Positions 3,895 to 43,675 of a DNA stretch of 64,000 bases are shown here, one piece after another. Source of the stretch: a virus; the IMG/VR virus record IMGVR_UViG_3300045988_101578, positions 1 to 64,000 of that record. The stretch is one strand, 5' to 3'. A program made the translations under genes and the position numbers. The stretch's first letter is position 1. Each line of letters opens with the position of its first letter. A model generated the notes under the pieces. The model did no database searches. It had not been told where the DNA came from and worked only from the letters and a program-made list of their open reading frames with translations.

Positions 3895-4143
3895 ATGAAA
3901 AAGAAATTAATCAATATTAATATCAAGGCATTTTTGGAAAAATTCAATGAAGAATACGACTTCTTATATGATAACTATGATCGAGTAGCTGGTTATACAG
4001 AAGCACTTGAAGCTGGTGATTCTTTTATAGAAAGTCATTTAGATTTTGTTAAAGAGTTTAATAATTATAGGGGAGATATTCTTTCTAGTGATAGAGAAGT
4101 TGTAGCATTTATGTTTGCATTAGAATCCATGGAGGTGGCATAG
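3895..4143 (+). CDS. hypothetical protein (start moved to the internal ATG with RBS gaaggttgg)
   Basis: track ORF 3862..4143; the ATG at 3895 has the better RBS. Confidence 0.4.
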   Translation: MKKKLININIKAFLEKFNEEYDFLYDNYDRVAGYTEALEAGDSFIESHLDFVKEFNNYRGDILSSDREVVAFMFALESMEVA

Positions 4144-31009: not shown

Positions 31010-31147
31010 GGAAACATAGCTCAGTTGGTAGAGCAGGCAATACATAAACATTCATTTTTCTACCTCCATATAAGTATTTTTATTTATTTACATTTAATTT
31101 TCATCACATATAAATTGCCGACACAGGTTCGATTCCTGTCGTGTCCA
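31010..31147 (+). tRNA. tRNA-like element split by a 72-nt AT-rich insertion (5-prime half with canonical D-arm; 3-prime half with anticodon-stem strand, T-arm and acceptor strand); acceptor stem pairs only 5 of 7
   Basis: ggaaacaTAGCTCAGTTGGTAGAGCAggcaat ... attgccgacACAGGTTCGATTCCTGTcgtgtcca. Confidence 0.35.
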
Positions 31148-37073: not shown

Positions 37074-38705
37074 ATGGCTAAGAAACAAGACGATAACACA
37101 ATGACAATTGCAAGGAAAATCACGTTAATTCCTGTTGCAAGCGAGCGAAAAGAGTGGAAGAAAAGAATTGATGCTTTCTTAGAAAAAGATTTTCCAAGGA
37201 AAATTGAAGCAAAGAAGAAACAGATTAAGAACACAAGTAAACCAGAAAAGAAAGATGGGTATAAACAGCAGCTTGCAGAATTAGAAAAGCAATATGAAGA
37301 GTTCAAAGAAAATGAAATGAAAGAATACACTCAGAAAATGGTTAATGATTATACATATGGTCTTGTGAGAGATGCGATGGAAAGTGAAGCAAGGCGAAAG
37401 AATTACATTATGTCATACATATATACAAAAATGGTACAGGACGAAGTAGCGAATTTACCGACTCTTACAGAAAAGAATAAATGGGTGAGTGCCAATGTTA
37501 ACAAATGTTATCGTAAAGCGGGTAATAAAAATGGAAGTATTTTTACAGACGTTGATATTAGTAATCCGTTGATGGGATACGGTTTTGAGTTTAAACAAGC
37601 GCTTACAAGCAAAATTAAGAATTTAATTAAAGATGGAGTATTGAAAGGAAAAGTTTCTGTCCCAAATTATAAATTCGATTCTCCTTTTACTTTAAGTAAT
37701 AAGAGTTTTGGTATTTTTACAGATTGCAAAGATATAACAGAATTAAAAAAGAATATTGGTAAGCCTACATACCCAGTGTATGTGTGCTTGGGCGGTAATG
37801 GTCTTCCAACAATTGCTAAATTCAAGATTAATTTTGGACATAAACAAAACAAGAATAAGGCAGAATTAATTTCAACAATTATTAAGATTTTCACAGGGGA
37901 GTATTCAGTTGGCGGAAGTACATTTGGTATTGATAATAATAAAATAGAAATGAACTTAAGCATAACAATGAAAAAACAAAAAATGGATTTAGATGAAAAT
38001 ACTGTTGTTGGAGTTGACTTGGGACTTGCTGTTCCTGCTGTGTGTGCTTTAAATAATAACGAATATGATAAACAATATATTGGAAGTGGGAATGATCTTG
38101 TTTCAAAAAGAACAAAATTTCAAAATGAATATACGCAGTTACAAAAAGCTTTAAAATTAGCAAAAGGTGGACATGGAAGAAAAAGAAAATTATTAGCTTT
38201 AGAAAGGCTAAAAGAAAAAGAAAACAATTTTGTTGATACATATTGTCATCGAGTTAGTAAAAAAGTTGTTGATTATGCAATCAAACATAGAGCAAAATAT
38301 ATCAACATAGAAAATTTAAAAGGGTATGATTCAAGTGAATTTGTTTTAAGAAATTGGAGCTTTTATAAACTACAGCAATATATTACATATAAAGCAGAAC
38401 AATGTGGGATCATAGTTAGAAAAATCAATCCATCATTTACATCTCAAGTGTGTAGTTTTTGTGGGCACTGGGAGAAAGGACAAAGAAAAGATCAGGCAAC
38501 ATTTAAATGTAAGAACCCTAATTGTAAAAGTCACAAGCTATATACTGTAAATGCAGATTACAATGCGGCTAGAAACATCGCAATGTCAACACAATTTACA
38601 GACGATAAATTTAAATGTTCAGAAGAAACGATTCAAGCTGCGGCAGATTATTATGGAATTGTATTAGAAGATGATAAAAATAATGATAATAAAAAAACTG
38701 CTTAA
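37074..38705 (+). CDS. cas12f: Cas12f (Cas14)/TnpB-family RNA-guided nuclease, 543 aa; RuvC split by a CxxC...CxxC zinc finger; catalytic D/E/D intact
   Basis: RuvC-I VVGVDLGLAVPAVCALNN; GGHGRKRK linker; RuvC-II KYINIENLKG; Zn finger CSFCGH...CKNPNCKSH; RuvC-III NADYNAARNIA; RBS gaaggagtgaag; followed by tracr-like RNAs and repeat-spacer arrays. Confidence 0.8.
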   Translation: MAKKQDDNTMTIARKITLIPVASERKEWKKRIDAFLEKDFPRKIEAKKKQIKNTSKPEKKDGYKQQLAELEKQYEEFKENEMKEYTQKMVNDYTYGLVRDAMESEARRKNYIMSYIYTKMVQDEVANLPTLTEKNKWVSANVNKCYRKAGNKNGSIFTDVDISNPLMGYGFEFKQALTSKIKNLIKDGVLKGKVSVPNYKFDSPFTLSNKSFGIFTDCKDITELKKNIGKPTYPVYVCLGGNGLPTIAKFKINFGHKQNKNKAELISTIIKIFTGEYSVGGSTFGIDNNKIEMNLSITMKKQKMDLDENTVVGVDLGLAVPAVCALNNNEYDKQYIGSGNDLVSKRTKFQNEYTQLQKALKLAKGGHGRKRKLLALERLKEKENNFVDTYCHRVSKKVVDYAIKHRAKYINIENLKGYDSSEFVLRNWSFYKLQQYITYKAEQCGIIVRKINPSFTSQVCSFCGHWEKGQRKDQATFKCKNPNCKSHKLYTVNADYNAARNIAMSTQFTDDKFKCSEETIQAAADYYGIVLEDDKNNDNKKTA

Positions 38706-38852
38706 ATATTTGGTGTGTTTTGGAGGGAGTTCGGTACTCCCTCAGCCATAAATAAAATGGTTACGCCAAAAGTGAGGAGAAATCACTCACTAAAATTTGT
38801 GTAATGAAGCAGAACGTAAAGTTTTGTATTGTATACATAATTAAGATTTGAG
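38706..38852 (+). ncRNA. tracrRNA-like scaffold 1 (conserved blocks tggtgtgttttgg / acgccaaaagtgag / actcactaaaat, then an anti-repeat atttgtgtaat and gttttgtatt complementary to repeat family 1)
   Basis: hairpin gagggagt/actccctc; stem agtgag/ctcact; anti-repeat complementary to attacacaaat of the downstream repeat. Confidence 0.6.
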
Positions 38853-38954
38853 GTTTGAGAACCATAAAAAATTACACAAATACAAAACGATCTTGGCTCG
38901 CTGATCCAGTGCATGGGTGTTTGAGAACCATAAAAAATTACACAAATAAAATAC
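38853..38954 (+). CRISPR. mini CRISPR array 1: 36-nt repeat gtttgagaaccataaaaaattacacaaatacaaaac, 30-nt spacer gatcttggctcgctgatccagtgcatgggt, second repeat 34/36 identical
   Basis: repeat-spacer-repeat read directly. Confidence 0.7.
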
Positions 38955-39089
38955 ATGGCATGTTTTGGGAAATTTTATTCCAATTAAAATTTCTGGTCAC
39001 AGAGTTGTGGCTATGCCAAAAGTGAGATCGTAAGGTACTCACTAAAATCTATGTAAATTAGGTAACAAAATTGGACAAAAGAATTTGAG
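38955..39089 (+). ncRNA. tracrRNA-like scaffold 2 (catgttttggg ... tatgccaaaagtgag ... actcactaaaat then anti-repeat ctatgtaaattaggtaacaaa)
   Basis: hairpin gaaatttta/taaaatttc; stem agtgag/ctcact with a different loop; anti-repeat complementary to repeat family 2. Confidence 0.6.
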
Positions 39090-39263
39090 GTTTGATACCT
39101 AATTAATTTTACATAGGTACAAAACTGTGCAAGCCTCTTTCTTCTGCTAATGCTTTGTTTGATACCTAATTAATTTTACATAGGTACAAAACGGCAGAAG
39201 CAATTAAAGAAAAAATGCAAAAATGTAGTTTGATGCCTAATTAATTTTACATCATAAACTTAA
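39090..39263 (+). CRISPR. mini CRISPR array 2: two exact 36-nt repeats gtttgatacctaattaattttacataggtacaaaac, spacers of 31 and 35 nt, and a degenerate terminal repeat gtttgatgcctaattaattttacatcataaacttaa
   Basis: R-S-R-S-degenerate R architecture. Confidence 0.8.
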
Positions 39264-39273
39264 TAAAATTTTA

Positions 39274-39400
39274 AAATATTTGGTGTGTTTTGGGAGTATA
39301 TAAAATATTCTGCTCAAATAATATTGAGTACGCCAAAAGTGAGGCTTACTATAGCACTCACTAAAATCTATGTTATATTGTCGGATTTATGTTATTTGAT
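39274..39400 (+). ncRNA. tracrRNA-like scaffold 3 (aaatatttggtgtgttttgggag ... tacgccaaaagtgag ... actcactaaaat then anti-repeat ctatgttat ... ttgtc)
   Basis: first 20 nt identical to the scaffold-1 start; anti-repeat complementary to repeat family 3. Confidence 0.6.
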
Positions 39401-39497
39401 GTTTGACAACTATAAAAAATAACATAGGTACAAAACCAACACATTTGCCCTTGATTTATCGAATGTGTTTGGCAATTATAAAAAAAATAACAAAAAC
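39401..39497 (+). CRISPR. mini CRISPR array 3: 36-nt repeat gtttgacaactataaaaaataacataggtacaaaac, 30-nt spacer caacacatttgcccttgatttatcgaatgt, degenerate 31-nt terminal repeat
   Basis: read directly. Confidence 0.65.
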
Positions 39498-39517
39498 CTA
39501 AAGGAATTTAAACAAAA

Positions 39518-39686: not shown

Positions 39687-39989
39687 ATGGCACATAACTT
39701 GTATATTGAAACACAATCAGAATATACAGGATGTAGTCCACAGCTGGAGGTATTAAATGTAAGAGATTGCAAACATATCATTGCATCATTAGATCATTAC
39801 CCACCTACAGCCGAGGAGGTTAAGAAAGCAGCTTGTATATTAATCGGACGATGTATTTACAAACGTATTTGGAACATGGAAATCGACATTGATAATTTGG
39901 ATATGCATTGTTCTCCGCCAAAAGAAATGACGATTGAAGAAATTGAAAAGGAACTTGGTTATAAAGTTAAAATTGTAAAGGAGAAATAA
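39687..39989 (+). CDS. hypothetical protein (start at ATG 39687 after RBS aaaggagaga)
   Basis: track ORF 39606..39989 extends 5-prime over the small ORF. Confidence 0.45.
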   Translation: MAHNLYIETQSEYTGCSPQLEVLNVRDCKHIIASLDHYPPTAEEVKKAACILIGRCIYKRIWNMEIDIDNLDMHCSPPKEMTIEEIEKELGYKVKIVKEK

Positions 39990-40300
39990 TGCCAATGGCA
40001 AAAAAGAAACAAGGAATGTCGTTTGAAATGATGATGCAAAATATGGAAATTAATCCAAGGCAATTGTATCGTCGTAGTTCGTGGAAGAAGACACGAACAA
40101 CTTATGATTATGTGTTTATGATGTGCGAAGAAGAATTAAATGAGATTATTCCATTTGATAAAAAATATAAAATGAAACCACTCTTATGTAGAGACCAAAA
40201 TGGAGTTATAACATTGGGATGGTTGCCTACACAAGAGGATATTTTCGCAAATGATTGGGTTGAGCAAGGATGGGATTTTAACAGTAAAAGGAAGAGGTGA
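39989..40300 (+). CDS. hypothetical protein
   Basis: ORF. Confidence 0.45.
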   Translation: MPMAKKKQGMSFEMMMQNMEINPRQLYRRSSWKKTRTTYDYVFMMCEEELNEIIPFDKKYKMKPLLCRDQNGVITLGWLPTQEDIFANDWVEQGWDFNSKRKR

Positions 40301-40308
40301 ATAATTAA

Positions 40309-40593
40309 TTGAATTTTATAAAAGCAATGATTGCAATAAAAAAAGACAAAACTACTATAAGAAGAGGCATTTGGGGAAAGGAAAAGTATTTGAAAATTTA
40401 TTCGTCAGAATTAACTAATGTTTATTTTGAGTGTAATGATATGGGTGAATATAAGCCAGATTCAATTATTTTTTTATTTGATAAAGAAAACGCAGAAGTT
40501 TGGATACCTCTTGCGGAAGATGTATATGCAGATGACTGGGAAATATATGTTGAGTCACTTAATAAAGGTGAGCAGATAAAGGAGGAAAAATAA
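40309..40593 (+). CDS. hypothetical protein (TTG start)
   Basis: ORF. Confidence 0.4.
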   Translation: MNFIKAMIAIKKDKTTIRRGIWGKEKYLKIYSSELTNVYFECNDMGEYKPDSIIFLFDKENAEVWIPLAEDVYADDWEIYVESLNKGEQIKEEK

Positions 40594-41546
40594 TGAAGTG
40601 TTTTTATCATGTTGATCAAGACGGCATCGTATCTGGTTTCTATGTCAGAAAAGCTTGCGAACAGCGAGGTTTAGCATTTGAACCAGAAGACTTCCGAAAA
40701 ATTAATTACGACATGAAATTCCCGTTTCATGACATTGAGCAGGATGAATTTGTGTTTATTGTAGACTACAGTATTGAGCCAGAAGAGATGTGGCAGTTGC
40801 TCAGTATTACAAAGAATGTATTTTGGATCGACCATCATCAGTCTACGATTGAAGCGTATAAAGATTTCAAGTGTGATGTAAAAGGAATCAGAATTACTGG
40901 AGCGGGTATTTCAGGAGCGAATTTGACATGGTTATATTTTAAATATATGTGTGATGAAAATTGGGAGCAAATTGAGAGGACGGATGAGAAAAATGTAAAA
41001 AGATTACTCAATATATATAAATATAAAGCAGATTATCCAAAACTGGCAGAATATACAGCCATGTGGGATACATTTTATTTTGGTGAAACGTCAAAACAAT
41101 TCGTAAAAGCATTTCACTATGCATTTGAATCGTATGATTTTGATGCGTTAAGTCCATTGCTAAACACGTTAAATAAAGATCAAGGAATTTATGAAGCAGC
41201 AAAAATTATTGGTGATATGATAGCAGATGGCTTATCAATTATTGAGTATTTAGCAGCAAATGCAGAACAATATCTTAGAGCATATGGTTTTGAAACCATA
41301 TTTGAGGGACATAAAGTCTATGCAATCAACCGAGCATTAATCAATTCTGATTTCTTTGAATCTATTGATGCTTCTAAATATGATATGTTCATTGGTTTTT
41401 CGTTCAATGGAAGTATGTGGGAATATCAGTTGCGATCCGCAGAACAGGATAAAGTAAATGTGTATGAGCTTGCTGTGAAATATGGTGGCGGTGGTCATCC
41501 AAATGCAGCTGGGTTCAGAAGTGATAAGTATGTGTTAGGAGTGTGA
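40593..41546 (+). CDS. DHH/DHHA1 phosphoesterase, NrnA-like (nanoRNase / pAp phosphatase family)
   Basis: YHVDQDGIVSG (DxD motif), FWIDHHQ (DHH), GGGGHPNAAGF (DHHA1 GGGH); 317 aa like NrnA. Confidence 0.7.
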   Translation: MKCFYHVDQDGIVSGFYVRKACEQRGLAFEPEDFRKINYDMKFPFHDIEQDEFVFIVDYSIEPEEMWQLLSITKNVFWIDHHQSTIEAYKDFKCDVKGIRITGAGISGANLTWLYFKYMCDENWEQIERTDEKNVKRLLNIYKYKADYPKLAEYTAMWDTFYFGETSKQFVKAFHYAFESYDFDALSPLLNTLNKDQGIYEAAKIIGDMIADGLSIIEYLAANAEQYLRAYGFETIFEGHKVYAINRALINSDFFESIDASKYDMFIGFSFNGSMWEYQLRSAEQDKVNVYELAVKYGGGGHPNAAGFRSDKYVLGV

Positions 41547-41549
41547 TGT

Positions 41550-42311
41550 ATGGATAAAGGTATAACTATAGAATTTTATAGGAATTATGAATTTGATATT
41601 GTACGAGGTATTTGTCTTGGAGATGAATCAACAAAAATTGACTTCCCTATAAATGATGAAACTTTAAACATAATGGCTTCAGATTTTCAATATAATGAAC
41701 AAACTATACAGTTAGATTATGGTTATAAATATAGAAGAAAAAATTATGTAAAAATCGACGAAATGCAAGCTACATCAACAAATATATTGTCATGTAACGG
41801 AATTATATTAAAAGATGGCATTAAGTTTTTTATTGGTGAAGCAGTAATGGATGTTTCTAGTGGAAAAGAAATATATAAATTATATGACAAAGATGTATAT
41901 AAAGATAAAACTTATTATAATCAAACGAAAGAAATGGTATTTGAATGGGCAAAGAAAGATATATATAAAGTTGTAATGATGATGGACAGGATTGCAGGAG
42001 AGGCAATTAATCGAGCGATGACCGAATATGCTAATCACGGATCTTTGTATCGTATGTTCTTTCCACCTAATATTCCTGAGCCACAATATAGTTATTCTAT
42101 GCATGATTTATACTTGATGACTGATCCTAATATAATGAAGGGTGACATTCGTAGGCGTATATGCTGCAAGGTACCTAATTTTGATAGGAGGGTGAGGAAA
42201 TGGGATTATAGTGCAGATCGTTATGAACATTACTTAGTGTTGGATTACAGTAAGGAAGTACAAAAATTCATTAAAGAACAGGAGGCAAAGAGATGTGAAG
42301 AAGCTAAATGA
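41550..42311 (+). CDS. hypothetical protein
   Basis: ORF. Confidence 0.5.
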   Translation: MDKGITIEFYRNYEFDIVRGICLGDESTKIDFPINDETLNIMASDFQYNEQTIQLDYGYKYRRKNYVKIDEMQATSTNILSCNGIILKDGIKFFIGEAVMDVSSGKEIYKLYDKDVYKDKTYYNQTKEMVFEWAKKDIYKVVMMMDRIAGEAINRAMTEYANHGSLYRMFFPPNIPEPQYSYSMHDLYLMTDPNIMKGDIRRRICCKVPNFDRRVRKWDYSADRYEHYLVLDYSKEVQKFIKEQEAKRCEEAK

Positions 42312-42828
42312 TGAACAGCGAAGGCTGATTGAAGATAATTACTCTTTGATTTGGCATTTACATGAAAAATATTTTACAAAGTTTACAGATTTTGATACAT
42401 ATATGGATCTTGGTCGTATGGCAATTTGTAAAGCAGCATTAAAATGGGACGAGTCTAAAGGAACTTTTGGTACATATCTCTTCTGGGTATTACGTTCAGA
42501 AGTGAATCAATATTATACAAAATGGCACAGACTAACAGAAAAAATGAATAGGAATGCTGAATCGTTAGATACGCCATTGGCAGGATATGAGCTAGAAGAT
42601 GATATTACAATCGGAACAACACTGATGAGTAAAGATAATGTGGAGGATGAGGTGCTTACAAAGGTACATTTTCAAAATGAGTTTGATAAATTGGCACCGA
42701 GAAATAAAAAGATTATCACGTTAAAGCAGAAAGGTTTAACACAAAGACAAATTGCAAGTCAGCTTGGAATCACTCATCAGTGGGTTAGTCAAAATATTGT
42801 ACAGTTTAAGAAAGCATTATGTGGATAA
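42295..42828 (+). CDS. sigma-70 family RNA polymerase sigma factor (phage-encoded), paralogue 1
   Basis: region 2 DLGRMAICKAALKWDESKGTFGTYLFWVLRSEV; region 4 HTH LTQRQIASQLGITHQWVSQNIVQFKKAL. Confidence 0.75.
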   Translation: MKKLNDEQRRLIEDNYSLIWHLHEKYFTKFTDFDTYMDLGRMAICKAALKWDESKGTFGTYLFWVLRSEVNQYYTKWHRLTEKMNRNAESLDTPLAGYELEDDITIGTTLMSKDNVEDEVLTKVHFQNEFDKLAPRNKKIITLKQKGLTQRQIASQLGITHQWVSQNIVQFKKALCG

Positions 42829-42841
42829 AAGAGGTGAGACC

Positions 42842-43675
42842 ATGACAATTGAAGAAGTAAAGGATTACATAAACTCGTCTACAGAGTATGACTTTTTGCG
42901 AGATTATCCGCACAAAATCGCTTTTCTCACGTTAGGTGGAAGTTATGCCTACGGAACAAACACAGAGGATTCTGACATTGATTTACGTGGTGTTTTTCTT
43001 AGTGATAAAAGAGAGATTTTGTTGAATAATAATCCAAATAATCTTGAAAAGACAGACGATCATAAAGATGTTGATACTGTGTTACATTCGCATATTAAGA
43101 TGATTAACATGCTTGCAAAAGGTAACCCTACATATTTAGAACTGTTGTATTTTGCGCCAGACCGTTATTTGTGTGTATCCGATATTGGTATGGAGTTGAT
43201 CAAAAATAGAGATATGTTCTTATCTAAGAGAGTTTATCATGCATATCAAGGATATATATGTGATTGCCTGACTCGAACGAGTTTTAAGTATTATAAAAAT
43301 AAAGATTCAGAGAAAGAAAAGCAAAAGGCGGAACGATACGCTAATAAATCAATGATGCACGCAGTTCGATTATTGTTACAGGGCATTGAATTATTGCATA
43401 ACGGAACAATGTTAGGATCTATGGATGACATAGGAAAAGATCTTGTAAAGATCAAAGAAGGATATAATAGTACGCATAAAACATATAGATTTGGCAAACA
43501 CAATGAGCATACAGAATATTTCCCAAATCAGTCATACGATGTTTTTATTGAAGGATTACTTTATCAATTTGATTATGATTATATGAATACTGATTTGCCA
43601 GACGAACCAGACTGGGATCGTATCAATAACTTCTTGATGACAACAAATGAACGAATTGTGAGAGGAATGGTGTAA
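42842..43675 (+). CDS. nucleotidyltransferase (Pol-beta superfamily, PF10127-like)
   Basis: GGSYAYGTNTEDSDIDLRGVF = GS...D.D NTase motif; ATG 42842 after RBS aagaggtgag. Confidence 0.55.
   Translation: MTIEEVKDYINSSTEYDFLRDYPHKIAFLTLGGSYAYGTNTEDSDIDLRGVFLSDKREILLNNNPNNLEKTDDHKDVDTVLHSHIKMINMLAKGNPTYLELLYFAPDRYLCVSDIGMELIKNRDMFLSKRVYHAYQGYICDCLTRTSFKYYKNKDSEKEKQKAERYANKSMMHAVRLLLQGIELLHNGTMLGSMDDIGKDLVKIKEGYNSTHKTYRFGKHNEHTEYFPNQSYDVFIEGLLYQFDYDYMNTDLPDEPDWDRINNFLMTTNERIVRGMV

Follow-up and report, generated by a model that had tools for sequence, protein, structure and literature searches.

The window analysed here is a 64,000-nucleotide (nt) stretch of viral DNA (positions 1 to 64,000 of IMG/VR record IMGVR_UViG_3300045988_101578), in which one cas12f gene is followed directly, on the same strand, by three homologous cassettes at 38706-39502. 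Each cassette combines a scaffold resembling a tracrRNA (trans-activating CRISPR RNA) with a CRISPR mini-array of its own, and the gene and the three guide-RNA cassettes make up the CRISPR locus described here in a gut phage. It is very probably a phage-borne type V-F (Cas12f1) locus without adaptation genes, in which three tandem cassettes, each with its own tracrRNA, would share a single Cas12f. The features of the locus are as follows.

37074-38705, plus strand: cas12f, 543 amino acids, Cas12f1 (former V-U3) lineage by Pfam, PDB and PADLOC matches
38706-38852, plus strand: tracrRNA-like scaffold of cassette 1, core 38706-38807, covariance-model match of 103.3 bits
38717-38722, plus strand: cassette 1 pseudoknot strand GTTTTG
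38795-38805, plus strand: cassette 1 anti-repeat-1, ATTTGTGTAAT
38811-38827 and 38845-38852, plus strand: cassette 1 tail, with hairpin CAGAAC-GTAAA-GTTTTG and then leader motif GATTTGAG
38853-38954, plus strand: cassette 1 mini-array, with repeat R1 (38853-38888), spacer (38889-38918, 30 nt) and terminal repeat (38919-38954)
38951-39089, plus strand: tracrRNA-like scaffold of cassette 2, core 38951-39059, covariance-model match of 100.1 bits
38962-38967, plus strand: cassette 2 pseudoknot strand
39047-39057 and 39058-39069, plus strand: cassette 2 anti-repeat-1, ATCTATGTAAA, and anti-repeat-2, TTAGGTAACAAA
39082-39089, plus strand: cassette 2 leader motif, AATTTGAG
39090-39263, plus strand: cassette 2 mini-array, with repeat R2 (39090-39125 and 39157-39192), spacers (39126-39156, 31 nt; 39193-39227, 35 nt) and degenerate terminal repeat (39228-39263)
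39276-39400, plus strand: tracrRNA-like scaffold of cassette 3, core 39276-39378, covariance-model match of 97.1 bits
39287-39292, plus strand: cassette 3 pseudoknot strand
39366-39376 and 39378-39386, plus strand: cassette 3 anti-repeat-1, ATCTATGTTAT, and anti-repeat-2, TTGTCGGAT
39393-39400, plus strand: cassette 3 leader motif, TATTTGAT
39401-39502, plus strand: cassette 3 mini-array, with repeat R3 (39401-39436), spacer (39437-39466, 30 nt) and degenerate terminal repeat (39467-39502)

The three cassettes can be aligned with one another over their full length. Each runs from a scaffold of about 100 nt through a variable anti-repeat segment and a short leader to one or two repeat-spacer units, and is closed by a terminal repeat that keeps its first 24-30 nt and has lost its 3' end; in cassette 1, 30 nt are identical to R1 and the 3' CAAAAC end is gone. 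Repeats are 36 nt and spacers 30-35 nt long. The mini-arrays, all within 38853-39502, are placed as type V-F arrays are, adjoining cas12f, with the repeats on the gene strand and the spacer 3' of the repeat. The block ACTCACTAAAAT is present three times, once per scaffold, and the anti-repeat (ATTTGTGTAAT, ATCTATGTAAA plus TTAGGTAACAAA, or ATCTATGTTAT plus TTGTCGGAT) comes directly after it. These elements had been quoted in an earlier, sequence-only reading of the window, and re-reading and a repeat scan found every one of them in its place. That reading had also held that the repeats share only their ends; the ends are indeed shared, but so is a common ACA[CT]A core. The scaffold of cassette 2 contains the inverted repeats I12 and I13, with a cofold gain of -12.1 kcal/mol, and that of cassette 3 has a cofold gain of -12.5 kcal/mol.

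The leaders end in ATTTGAG in cassettes 1 and 2 and in ATTTGAT in cassette 3. A motif [AG]ATTTGAG(G) abuts the 5' side of the first repeat in nearly every cassette, including those of relatives (2250-2256 in L051, and the cassettes of L041), and it is kept even in clades with a different anti-repeat, repeat and pseudoknot. It could be an anchoring site for a trans-acting integrase, or a processing signal.

The protein has the size of a type V-F effector (about 400-700 amino acids) and a TnpB-like C-terminal RuvC with D/E/D residues, interrupted by a TNB zinc finger. RuvC residues D315, E413 and D495 and zinc-finger residues C460, C463, C479 and C484 are intact, and all are invariant or nearly so across 26 homologues. 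Pfam matches were Cas12f1-like_TNB (PF07282, 1.4e-17) and OrfB_IS605 (PF01385), the NCBIfam 'guided_TnpB' subfamily also matched, and PADLOC gave Cas12u3 (1.5e-94) and Cas12f (4e-92). The best solved relatives were Cas12f-MG119-28 (9NZO/9NZR, 2e-59) and 8HR5 (5e-59), followed in the PDB search by AsCas12f and the 8J12 group; identity to the solved Cas12f proteins is only about 40-50% across the C-terminal half. A database search returned 745 homologues, many on 80-230-kb contigs, and the window gene has 99% identity to one on a 146-kb IMG/VR viral contig.

Scaffold structure was examined with RNAalifold on 33 aligned scaffolds, those of the window together with scaffolds of relatives whose Cas12f is 62-93% identical. 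The consensus has 28 pairs, 17 of them with compensatory changes on both sides. A stem GG[CT][AG]TG / [CT][AG]CC encloses unpaired GTT[TC][TC]G and two hairpins, and the 3' part is a GTGAG...CTCAC hairpin followed by a TAAAAT linker. A covariance model built from this alignment, and biased toward the window clade, had exactly three matches in the window (38706-38807, 38951-39059 and 39276-39378). In the 95 sources taken together it had 176 matches, spread over 81 of them and always on the cas12f strand; 62 of the 81 had at least two, a figure that the bias of the model makes a lower bound. Two weak matches (2118-2198 and 3993-4074, E about 0.003) were seen in a Clostridioides difficile chromosome (L096, OX246690.1), where they flank a 38%-identical Cas12f/TnpB-like gene; the two flanking sequences are almost the same, and CRISPR repeats were not seen. 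The bacterial gene and its flanks may be a transposon-type relative.

Validated guides of Cas12f-MG119 and Al3 contain GGGUGUG-UUGGA-ACGCC, the loop of which is complementary to the repeat end UCCAAC, and continue with UUUGAGG...CACUCA, an A-rich linker ending in U and, last, the anti-repeat (PMC13186708 supplement). By their motifs and folds, the window scaffolds match this plan, with two additional hairpins in the loop as compared with the corresponding loop of these guides. Pairwise local alignment of the scaffolds with validated tracrRNAs was uninformative. Cas12 tracrRNAs are reported to have in common a pseudoknot in which their 5' region pairs with the 3' end of the repeat (10.1101/2025.01.20.633832, on another phage Cas12). 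At the level of sequence and structure, the scaffolds carry both the anti-repeat and the pseudoknot of a type V-F tracrRNA. Rfam had no family at the gathering threshold in the cassette region, where its sole match was a chance one to CrcZ (E = 0.048, 16.6 bits versus a cut-off of 95).

Each scaffold is complementary to its own repeat, as the sequence-only reading had proposed, at repeat positions 19-29 and, in cassettes 2 and 3, also at positions 1-12; in cassette 3, anti-repeat-2 TTGTCGGAT pairs with GTTTGACAA, three G-U pairs included. With RNAduplex, every scaffold paired best with its own repeat. Cognate energies were -10.3, -18.7 and -14.5 kcal/mol for cassettes 1 to 3, versus -4.2 to -8.5 for the six non-cognate combinations, and were reached by 12, 0 and 8 of 500 base-shuffled repeats, respectively. 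The covariation expected in related phages was also found: the cognate repeat was the best within the locus for 33 of 34 cassettes from 11 loci, with a mean duplex energy of -13.8 kcal/mol for cognate versus -7.1 for non-cognate pairs. A common register holds throughout, in which the pseudoknot strand pairs with repeat nt 36-31, and the linker AU plus nine bases with nt 29-19. Over 30 distinct cassettes, 98.6% of the cells of the pseudoknot and anti-repeat-1 helix were standard pairs, whereas 23-55% were paired when the partner was slid by 1-3 columns. Both sides had changed at six of 17 pairs (44 cells), and 0 of 500 shuffles reached the observed values. Orthologous cassettes also differ by compensatory change, cassette 2 having AAA/TTT in the window and GAT/ATT in relative L015. 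The claim that these are functional pairs of tracrRNA and CRISPR RNA (crRNA) serving one effector is thus well supported by the sequence evidence.

Co-variation extends to the pseudoknot. In the window, GTTTTG is invariant near the scaffold 5' ends (38717-22, 38962-67, 39287-92) and complementary to CAAAAC, the likewise invariant end of the repeats. In relatives, cassettes of one locus carry different loop/repeat-end pairs, of at least nine types and each matched inside its own cassette; the pairs seen across the family are TTTTG/CAAAA, TTTCG/CGAAA, TTCTG/C[AG]GAA, TTCAG/CTGAA, CCTTT/AAAGG, TTTGG/CCAAA, TTTGA/TCAAA, TTTCA/TGAAA, CTTTG/CAAAG and TTTTA/TAAAA. The longest complement, scored free of register in 36 non-identical, well-delimited cassettes, was an exact one of at least 5 nt to the cassette's own repeat end in 32; in the four exceptions, the model match begins upstream of the stem. 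Among 10000 permuted tracr-repeat assignments, none reached the observed complement sum. No other single line of evidence speaks as strongly for each scaffold working with its adjacent array. In the tail of cassette 1, the hairpin at 38811-38827 co-varies in relatives as well (CAGAAC/GTTCTG, CAAAAC/GTTTTG), and looks like a cis copy of the pair formed by repeat end and pseudoknot strand.

Each of the seven relatives at 90-99% Cas12f identity has retained three cassettes, ordered alike, but the spacers in every cassette are wholly different between them. The number of cassettes among relatives ranges from two to five: three in a 70% clade, four in two phages of a 62% clade and two in its member L020, and up to five in total in distant clades (about 48-54% identity), where the cassettes flank the gene on both sides. 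Scanning IMG/VR and metagenome contigs for the R2/R3-type repeat-end pattern returned mini-arrays only, in which no more than two spacers are adjacent; they lie on contigs of 96-211 kb, human-gut assemblies among them, and on a few short fragments. The idea that the repeat families mirror host arrays was unsupported, as no long host-type arrays were found in these contigs.

In L020, two cassettes have been fused. Comparison of L020 4995-5160 with L042 4996-5180 and 5549-5700 shows that the tracrRNA core of cassette 2 now runs into cassette 4's tail and array at a junction within the shared CTAAAATGTATGTT, with the intervening DNA deleted. As a result of this deletion the pseudoknot is mismatched (strand GTTTCG, repeat end CAGAAC). 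Of the 'mosaic' guide scaffolds that the sequence-only reading had envisaged, this is the one natural example. An identical 30-nt spacer is present in cassettes of different repeat families in two phages (L069 4299-4336 and L061 2618-2654); together with the L020 chimera, it indicates that cassettes do recombine. Another spacer recurs as its reverse complement in a different phage (L045 2629-2665 and L049 2583-2609). Shared and reverse-complement spacers hint that spacers move between cassettes, or that they were repeatedly acquired from a single target region. Two spacers of L014 (5080-5109 and 5323-5353), from different cassettes, end in the same 12 nt (ATGCAAGTCTGC).

For one spacer of a relative, a target was found in the window itself.

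38263-38292, minus strand: protospacer in the window cas12f, matched at 28/30 positions by the cassette 2 spacer of L042

The same cas12f site in L010 is matched at 29/30 positions, and L042's own cas12f has no match to this spacer. Directly 5' of the protospacer, the non-target strand reads 5'-TTTG (38293-38296, minus-strand reading), consistent with a T-rich 5' protospacer adjacent motif (PAM) of the kind reported for the MG119 family. Phage CRISPR spacers against competing phages have been described (PMC7162821), and this single case points to phage-versus-phage targeting, with a rival's cas12f gene as the likely target. Apart from the L042 spacer, relaxed local BLAST of the spacers against the window gave only chance matches of 9-14 nt. 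Neither 40 non-redundant spacers from 11 loci nor the DNA of the locus matched any of 50,697 GenBank phages.

Anatomy, conserved structure, cognate co-variation, long-term cassette retention, spacer turnover in every cassette and one phage-against-phage protospacer are what the locus and its relatives support directly; from these we infer that the cassettes are transcribed, that their RNAs are processed and loaded, that DNA is cleaved, and why the guides are split. Each cassette would encode a scaffold of about 100 nt, made of a stem with the pseudoknot strand GUUUUG, two hairpins, the GUGAG...CUCAC hairpin and the linker UAAAAU, and then a cassette-specific anti-repeat, a leader ending in UUUGAG, one or two repeat-spacer units and a closing repeat without 3' end. 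The tracrRNA is predicted to form three helices with its own repeat, namely the pseudoknot (nt 31-36), anti-repeat-1 with the linker AU (nt 19-29) and anti-repeat-2 (nt 1-12). As a dual RNA, tracrRNA and crRNA would load the single Cas12f, which would most likely cut competing-phage DNA beside a T-rich 5' PAM. A near 1:1 ratio of tracrRNA to crRNA would fit arrays of one or two spacers. We favour an explanation of the split in which cassettes in tandem have to diverge wherever pairing permits, compensatory drift leading to private tracr:repeat pairs. Such divergence would be needed because similar tandem cassettes would recombine away, a loss of which the L020 chimera is an instance. Exchange of cassettes between phages is a possible extra benefit.

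Several observations weigh against this reading. A consensus scan found no same-strand sigma-70-type promoter in the cassettes and no terminator-like site in the region; two weak promoter matches inside the cassettes are both on the opposite strand, and the total for the region was 10 versus a shuffled expectation of 15.1. Transcription is therefore probably by read-through from cas12f, or as tracr-array co-transcripts. Co-transcription is favoured by the short distance from scaffold to first repeat, and pairing in trans would also be required, since many cassettes have two spacers. The co-variation statistics are inflated by the relatedness of the phages, so that the counts exceed the true number of independent changes. 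All three window cassettes have the same pseudoknot pair, and cassettes 2 and 3 share ATCTATGT, 8 nt of anti-repeat. A repeat:anti-repeat stem as short as 5 bp is enough for validated Cas12f single guides to function (PMC13186708 supplement). 'Orthogonal', which the sequence-only reading had thought the guide scaffolds might be, is thus too strong a word for the window, even though cognate pairing is the best; the pairs appear to be private by co-evolution, and insulation is only partly supported. Type V-F systems cleave double-stranded DNA with a Cas12f dimer on one guide, beside a 5' T-rich PAM; evidence for the PAM here is a single protospacer with two mismatches in the window. Finally, the four window spacers had no target in the window or in the GenBank phages, and exact 21-24-nt scans of IMG/VR with three of them (all except 39193-39227) returned only near-identical contigs or nothing.

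A more far-reaching version can be put forward tentatively. The cassettes might be autonomous, exchangeable guide-RNA genes expressed as tracr-crRNA co-transcripts, their three helices acting as a private address against both mis-pairing and recombination. Cas12f would then read helix shape instead of sequence, and cassette shuffling, not Cas1-Cas2, would renew the guides.

It is rather unlikely, if quite conceivable, that each cassette is instead a natural single-guide RNA, in which scaffold, leader, first repeat and spacer form one self-folding transcript like the omega/reRNA of TnpB but with a hairpin derived from the repeat, and the co-variation reflects a hairpin in cis. Scaffold and array do lie on the same strand, 14-47 nt separate the anti-repeat end from the first repeat in the window (13 nt in type-D cassettes of relatives), no terminator or same-strand promoter was found between them, a cis fold yields the same helices, and one spacer is present in 62 of the 114 cassettes with a detectable array. 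But the rest comprise 42 with two spacers and 10 with three or four, window cassette 2 being among these multi-spacer cassettes, and later repeats can pair only in trans. In addition, the terminal repeat keeps its first 24-30 nt or so, which suggests pairing and processing at every repeat, and in the closest relatives that have been validated, tracrRNA and crRNA are separate molecules.

A single cassette might work, the others being decaying tandem duplicates with inherited, unselected complementarity. Tandem duplication is the obvious origin of the cassettes, the terminal repeats are degenerate, and the L020 chimera illustrates recombinational loss. We nevertheless consider decay very unlikely: cassette types are orthologous and in the same order across clades with 62-99% Cas12f identity, every stem is kept through compensatory changes in all three scaffolds, anti-repeat and repeat change together in orthologous cassettes (the AAA/TTT and GAT/ATT variants of cassette 2), and spacers turn over in all three cassettes. 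It is highly improbable that the scaffolds are duplicated CRISPR leaders or regulatory elements (promoters, integration-host sites) with repeat-like inverted segments by chance. They do stand directly upstream of the arrays, and the conserved ATTTGAG abuts the first repeat, but RNA-type compensatory changes in four stems and a loop co-varying with the repeat 3' end are not expected of leaders, and the scaffolds follow the plan of validated Cas12f tracrRNAs. That the gene is an IS200/IS605-type TnpB and the downstream RNAs transposon omega/reRNA copies, as the OrfB_IS605 and 'guided_TnpB' matches might suggest, is scarcely credible, given that the protein is best matched by CRISPR-associated Cas12f, for which guide complexes have been solved, that the guides lie between direct repeats as variable spacers at fixed positions and differ among near-identical genomes, and that no Y1 transposase is among 25 of the 29 Pfam families listed for the window. 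An element of that type would have transposon ends, usually a TnpA, and a guide drawn from the DNA beside its right end, not enclosed by direct repeats.

Textbook class 2 CRISPR systems have a single tracrRNA for a single array, and type II systems include tracr-L, a natural single guide, and scaRNA. The three-cassette locus resembles the type V-F1 systems with tracrRNA (Cas12f-MG119-28/Al3Cas12f, CnCas12f1, AsCas12f1, OsCas12f1, Un1Cas12f1/Cas14a) in its small TnpB-like effector with RuvC and zinc finger, its 36-nt repeats and spacers of about 30 nt, its likely T-rich 5' PAM, and its tracrRNA, with a loop pairing to the repeat 3' end, a GAG...CUC stem, an A-rich linker and an anti-repeat. It differs from them in that descriptions of characterised loci give a single tracrRNA and a single array, whereas here there are three (two to five in relatives), each tracrRNA adjoining its own array of one or two spacers and co-varying with its own repeat family. 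It also differs in being located in a phage and in its lack of detected adaptation genes. Many cellular V-F loci have an adaptation module (cas1, cas2, cas4); in the window, Cas1, Cas2 and Cas4 were not found among 25 of the 26 PADLOC and 25 of the 29 Pfam families listed for its 82 open reading frames (ORFs). According to PMC7162821, adaptation genes are usually missing from phage-encoded CRISPR loci, and as this is the rule there, membership of type V-F is still allowed.

The CRISPR loci of huge phages, V-F/Cas14 ones included (Al-Shayeb et al. 2020, PMC7162821), are similar in being phage-borne, without adaptation genes, and equipped with very short arrays and anti-competitor spacers. That paper, in the part concerned, covers arrays and effectors, without multiple tracrRNA-array cassettes or tracr:repeat co-variation, and its subject is huge phages, as compared with contigs of 96-211 kb here. 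Second or alternative tracrRNAs in some CRISPR-Cas9 loci are the object of a passing remark (10.1101/2020.09.02.279885). They, tracr-L and scaRNA likewise give more than one tracr-type RNA per class 2 locus, but they belong to type II, where the extra RNA serves the same array or regulation, and do not form tandem cassettes with private repeats. The omega/reRNA of IS200/IS605 TnpB has a related fold, is a same-strand structured RNA directly after the stop codon, and has its scaffold 5' of the guide; unlike it, the cassettes have a repeat separating guide from scaffold and another repeat after the guide, their guides vary among near-identical genomes, and no transposon features were found. In a full-text literature search, which left most subscription journals uncovered, neither natural multiple tracrRNAs for Cas12f nor phage tracr-array cassettes were found described. 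What is unusual, and probably new, is the guide-RNA organisation; the defining features are otherwise those of type V-F1 without adaptation module, in a phage.

The long ORFs of the window, which is phage DNA, all lie on the same strand. A replication block comprises a DnaB-like helicase, a RecJ-like exonuclease, a DnaE-type polymerase and a RecD/Dda-like helicase, and the counter-defence genes include ArdA (818-1363) and two Tad2-like ORFs. The genes that follow the cassettes are listed here.

39989-40300 and 40309-40593: two tandem Tad2-like (Thoeris anti-defence) ORFs, directly 3' of the cassettes
40593-41546: DHH/DHHA1 phosphoesterase
42295-42828: sigma-70-like factor (regions 2 and 4)
42752-43675: RlaP-family nucleotidyltransferase

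The Tad2-like ORFs and ArdA nearby suggest that cas12f is located within a phage counter-defence region. The phage-encoded sigma factor could account for the scarcity of sigma-70 consensus promoters around the cassettes. Elsewhere in the window, an Rfam tRNA match at 31010-31147 (138 nt, 34.9 bits, above the gathering score), uncalled by ARAGORN, may be an intron-containing or degenerate tRNA.

These loci provide a natural co-variation data set, in which the freely variable parts of the guide would be the repeat:anti-repeat and even the pseudoknot, and the fixed part GCCAAAAGUGAG...CUCACUAAAAU. It would be of direct use in designing non-repetitive or mutually insulated scaffolds for a multiplexed miniature editor. 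If the cassettes are indeed autonomous guide-RNA genes, their ten or so pseudoknot variants and many repeat:anti-repeat variants would amount to a ready-made set of insulated scaffolds for one miniature nuclease. For the phages, the finding raises the question of how spacers are renewed so fast without Cas1-Cas2 that close relatives share none. It would also be a further instance of CRISPR targeting of one phage by another, here aimed at a rival's own cas12f. A family of gut phages thus appears to split its guide store, across at least 62 loci, into two to five cassettes with co-evolving tracrRNAs.

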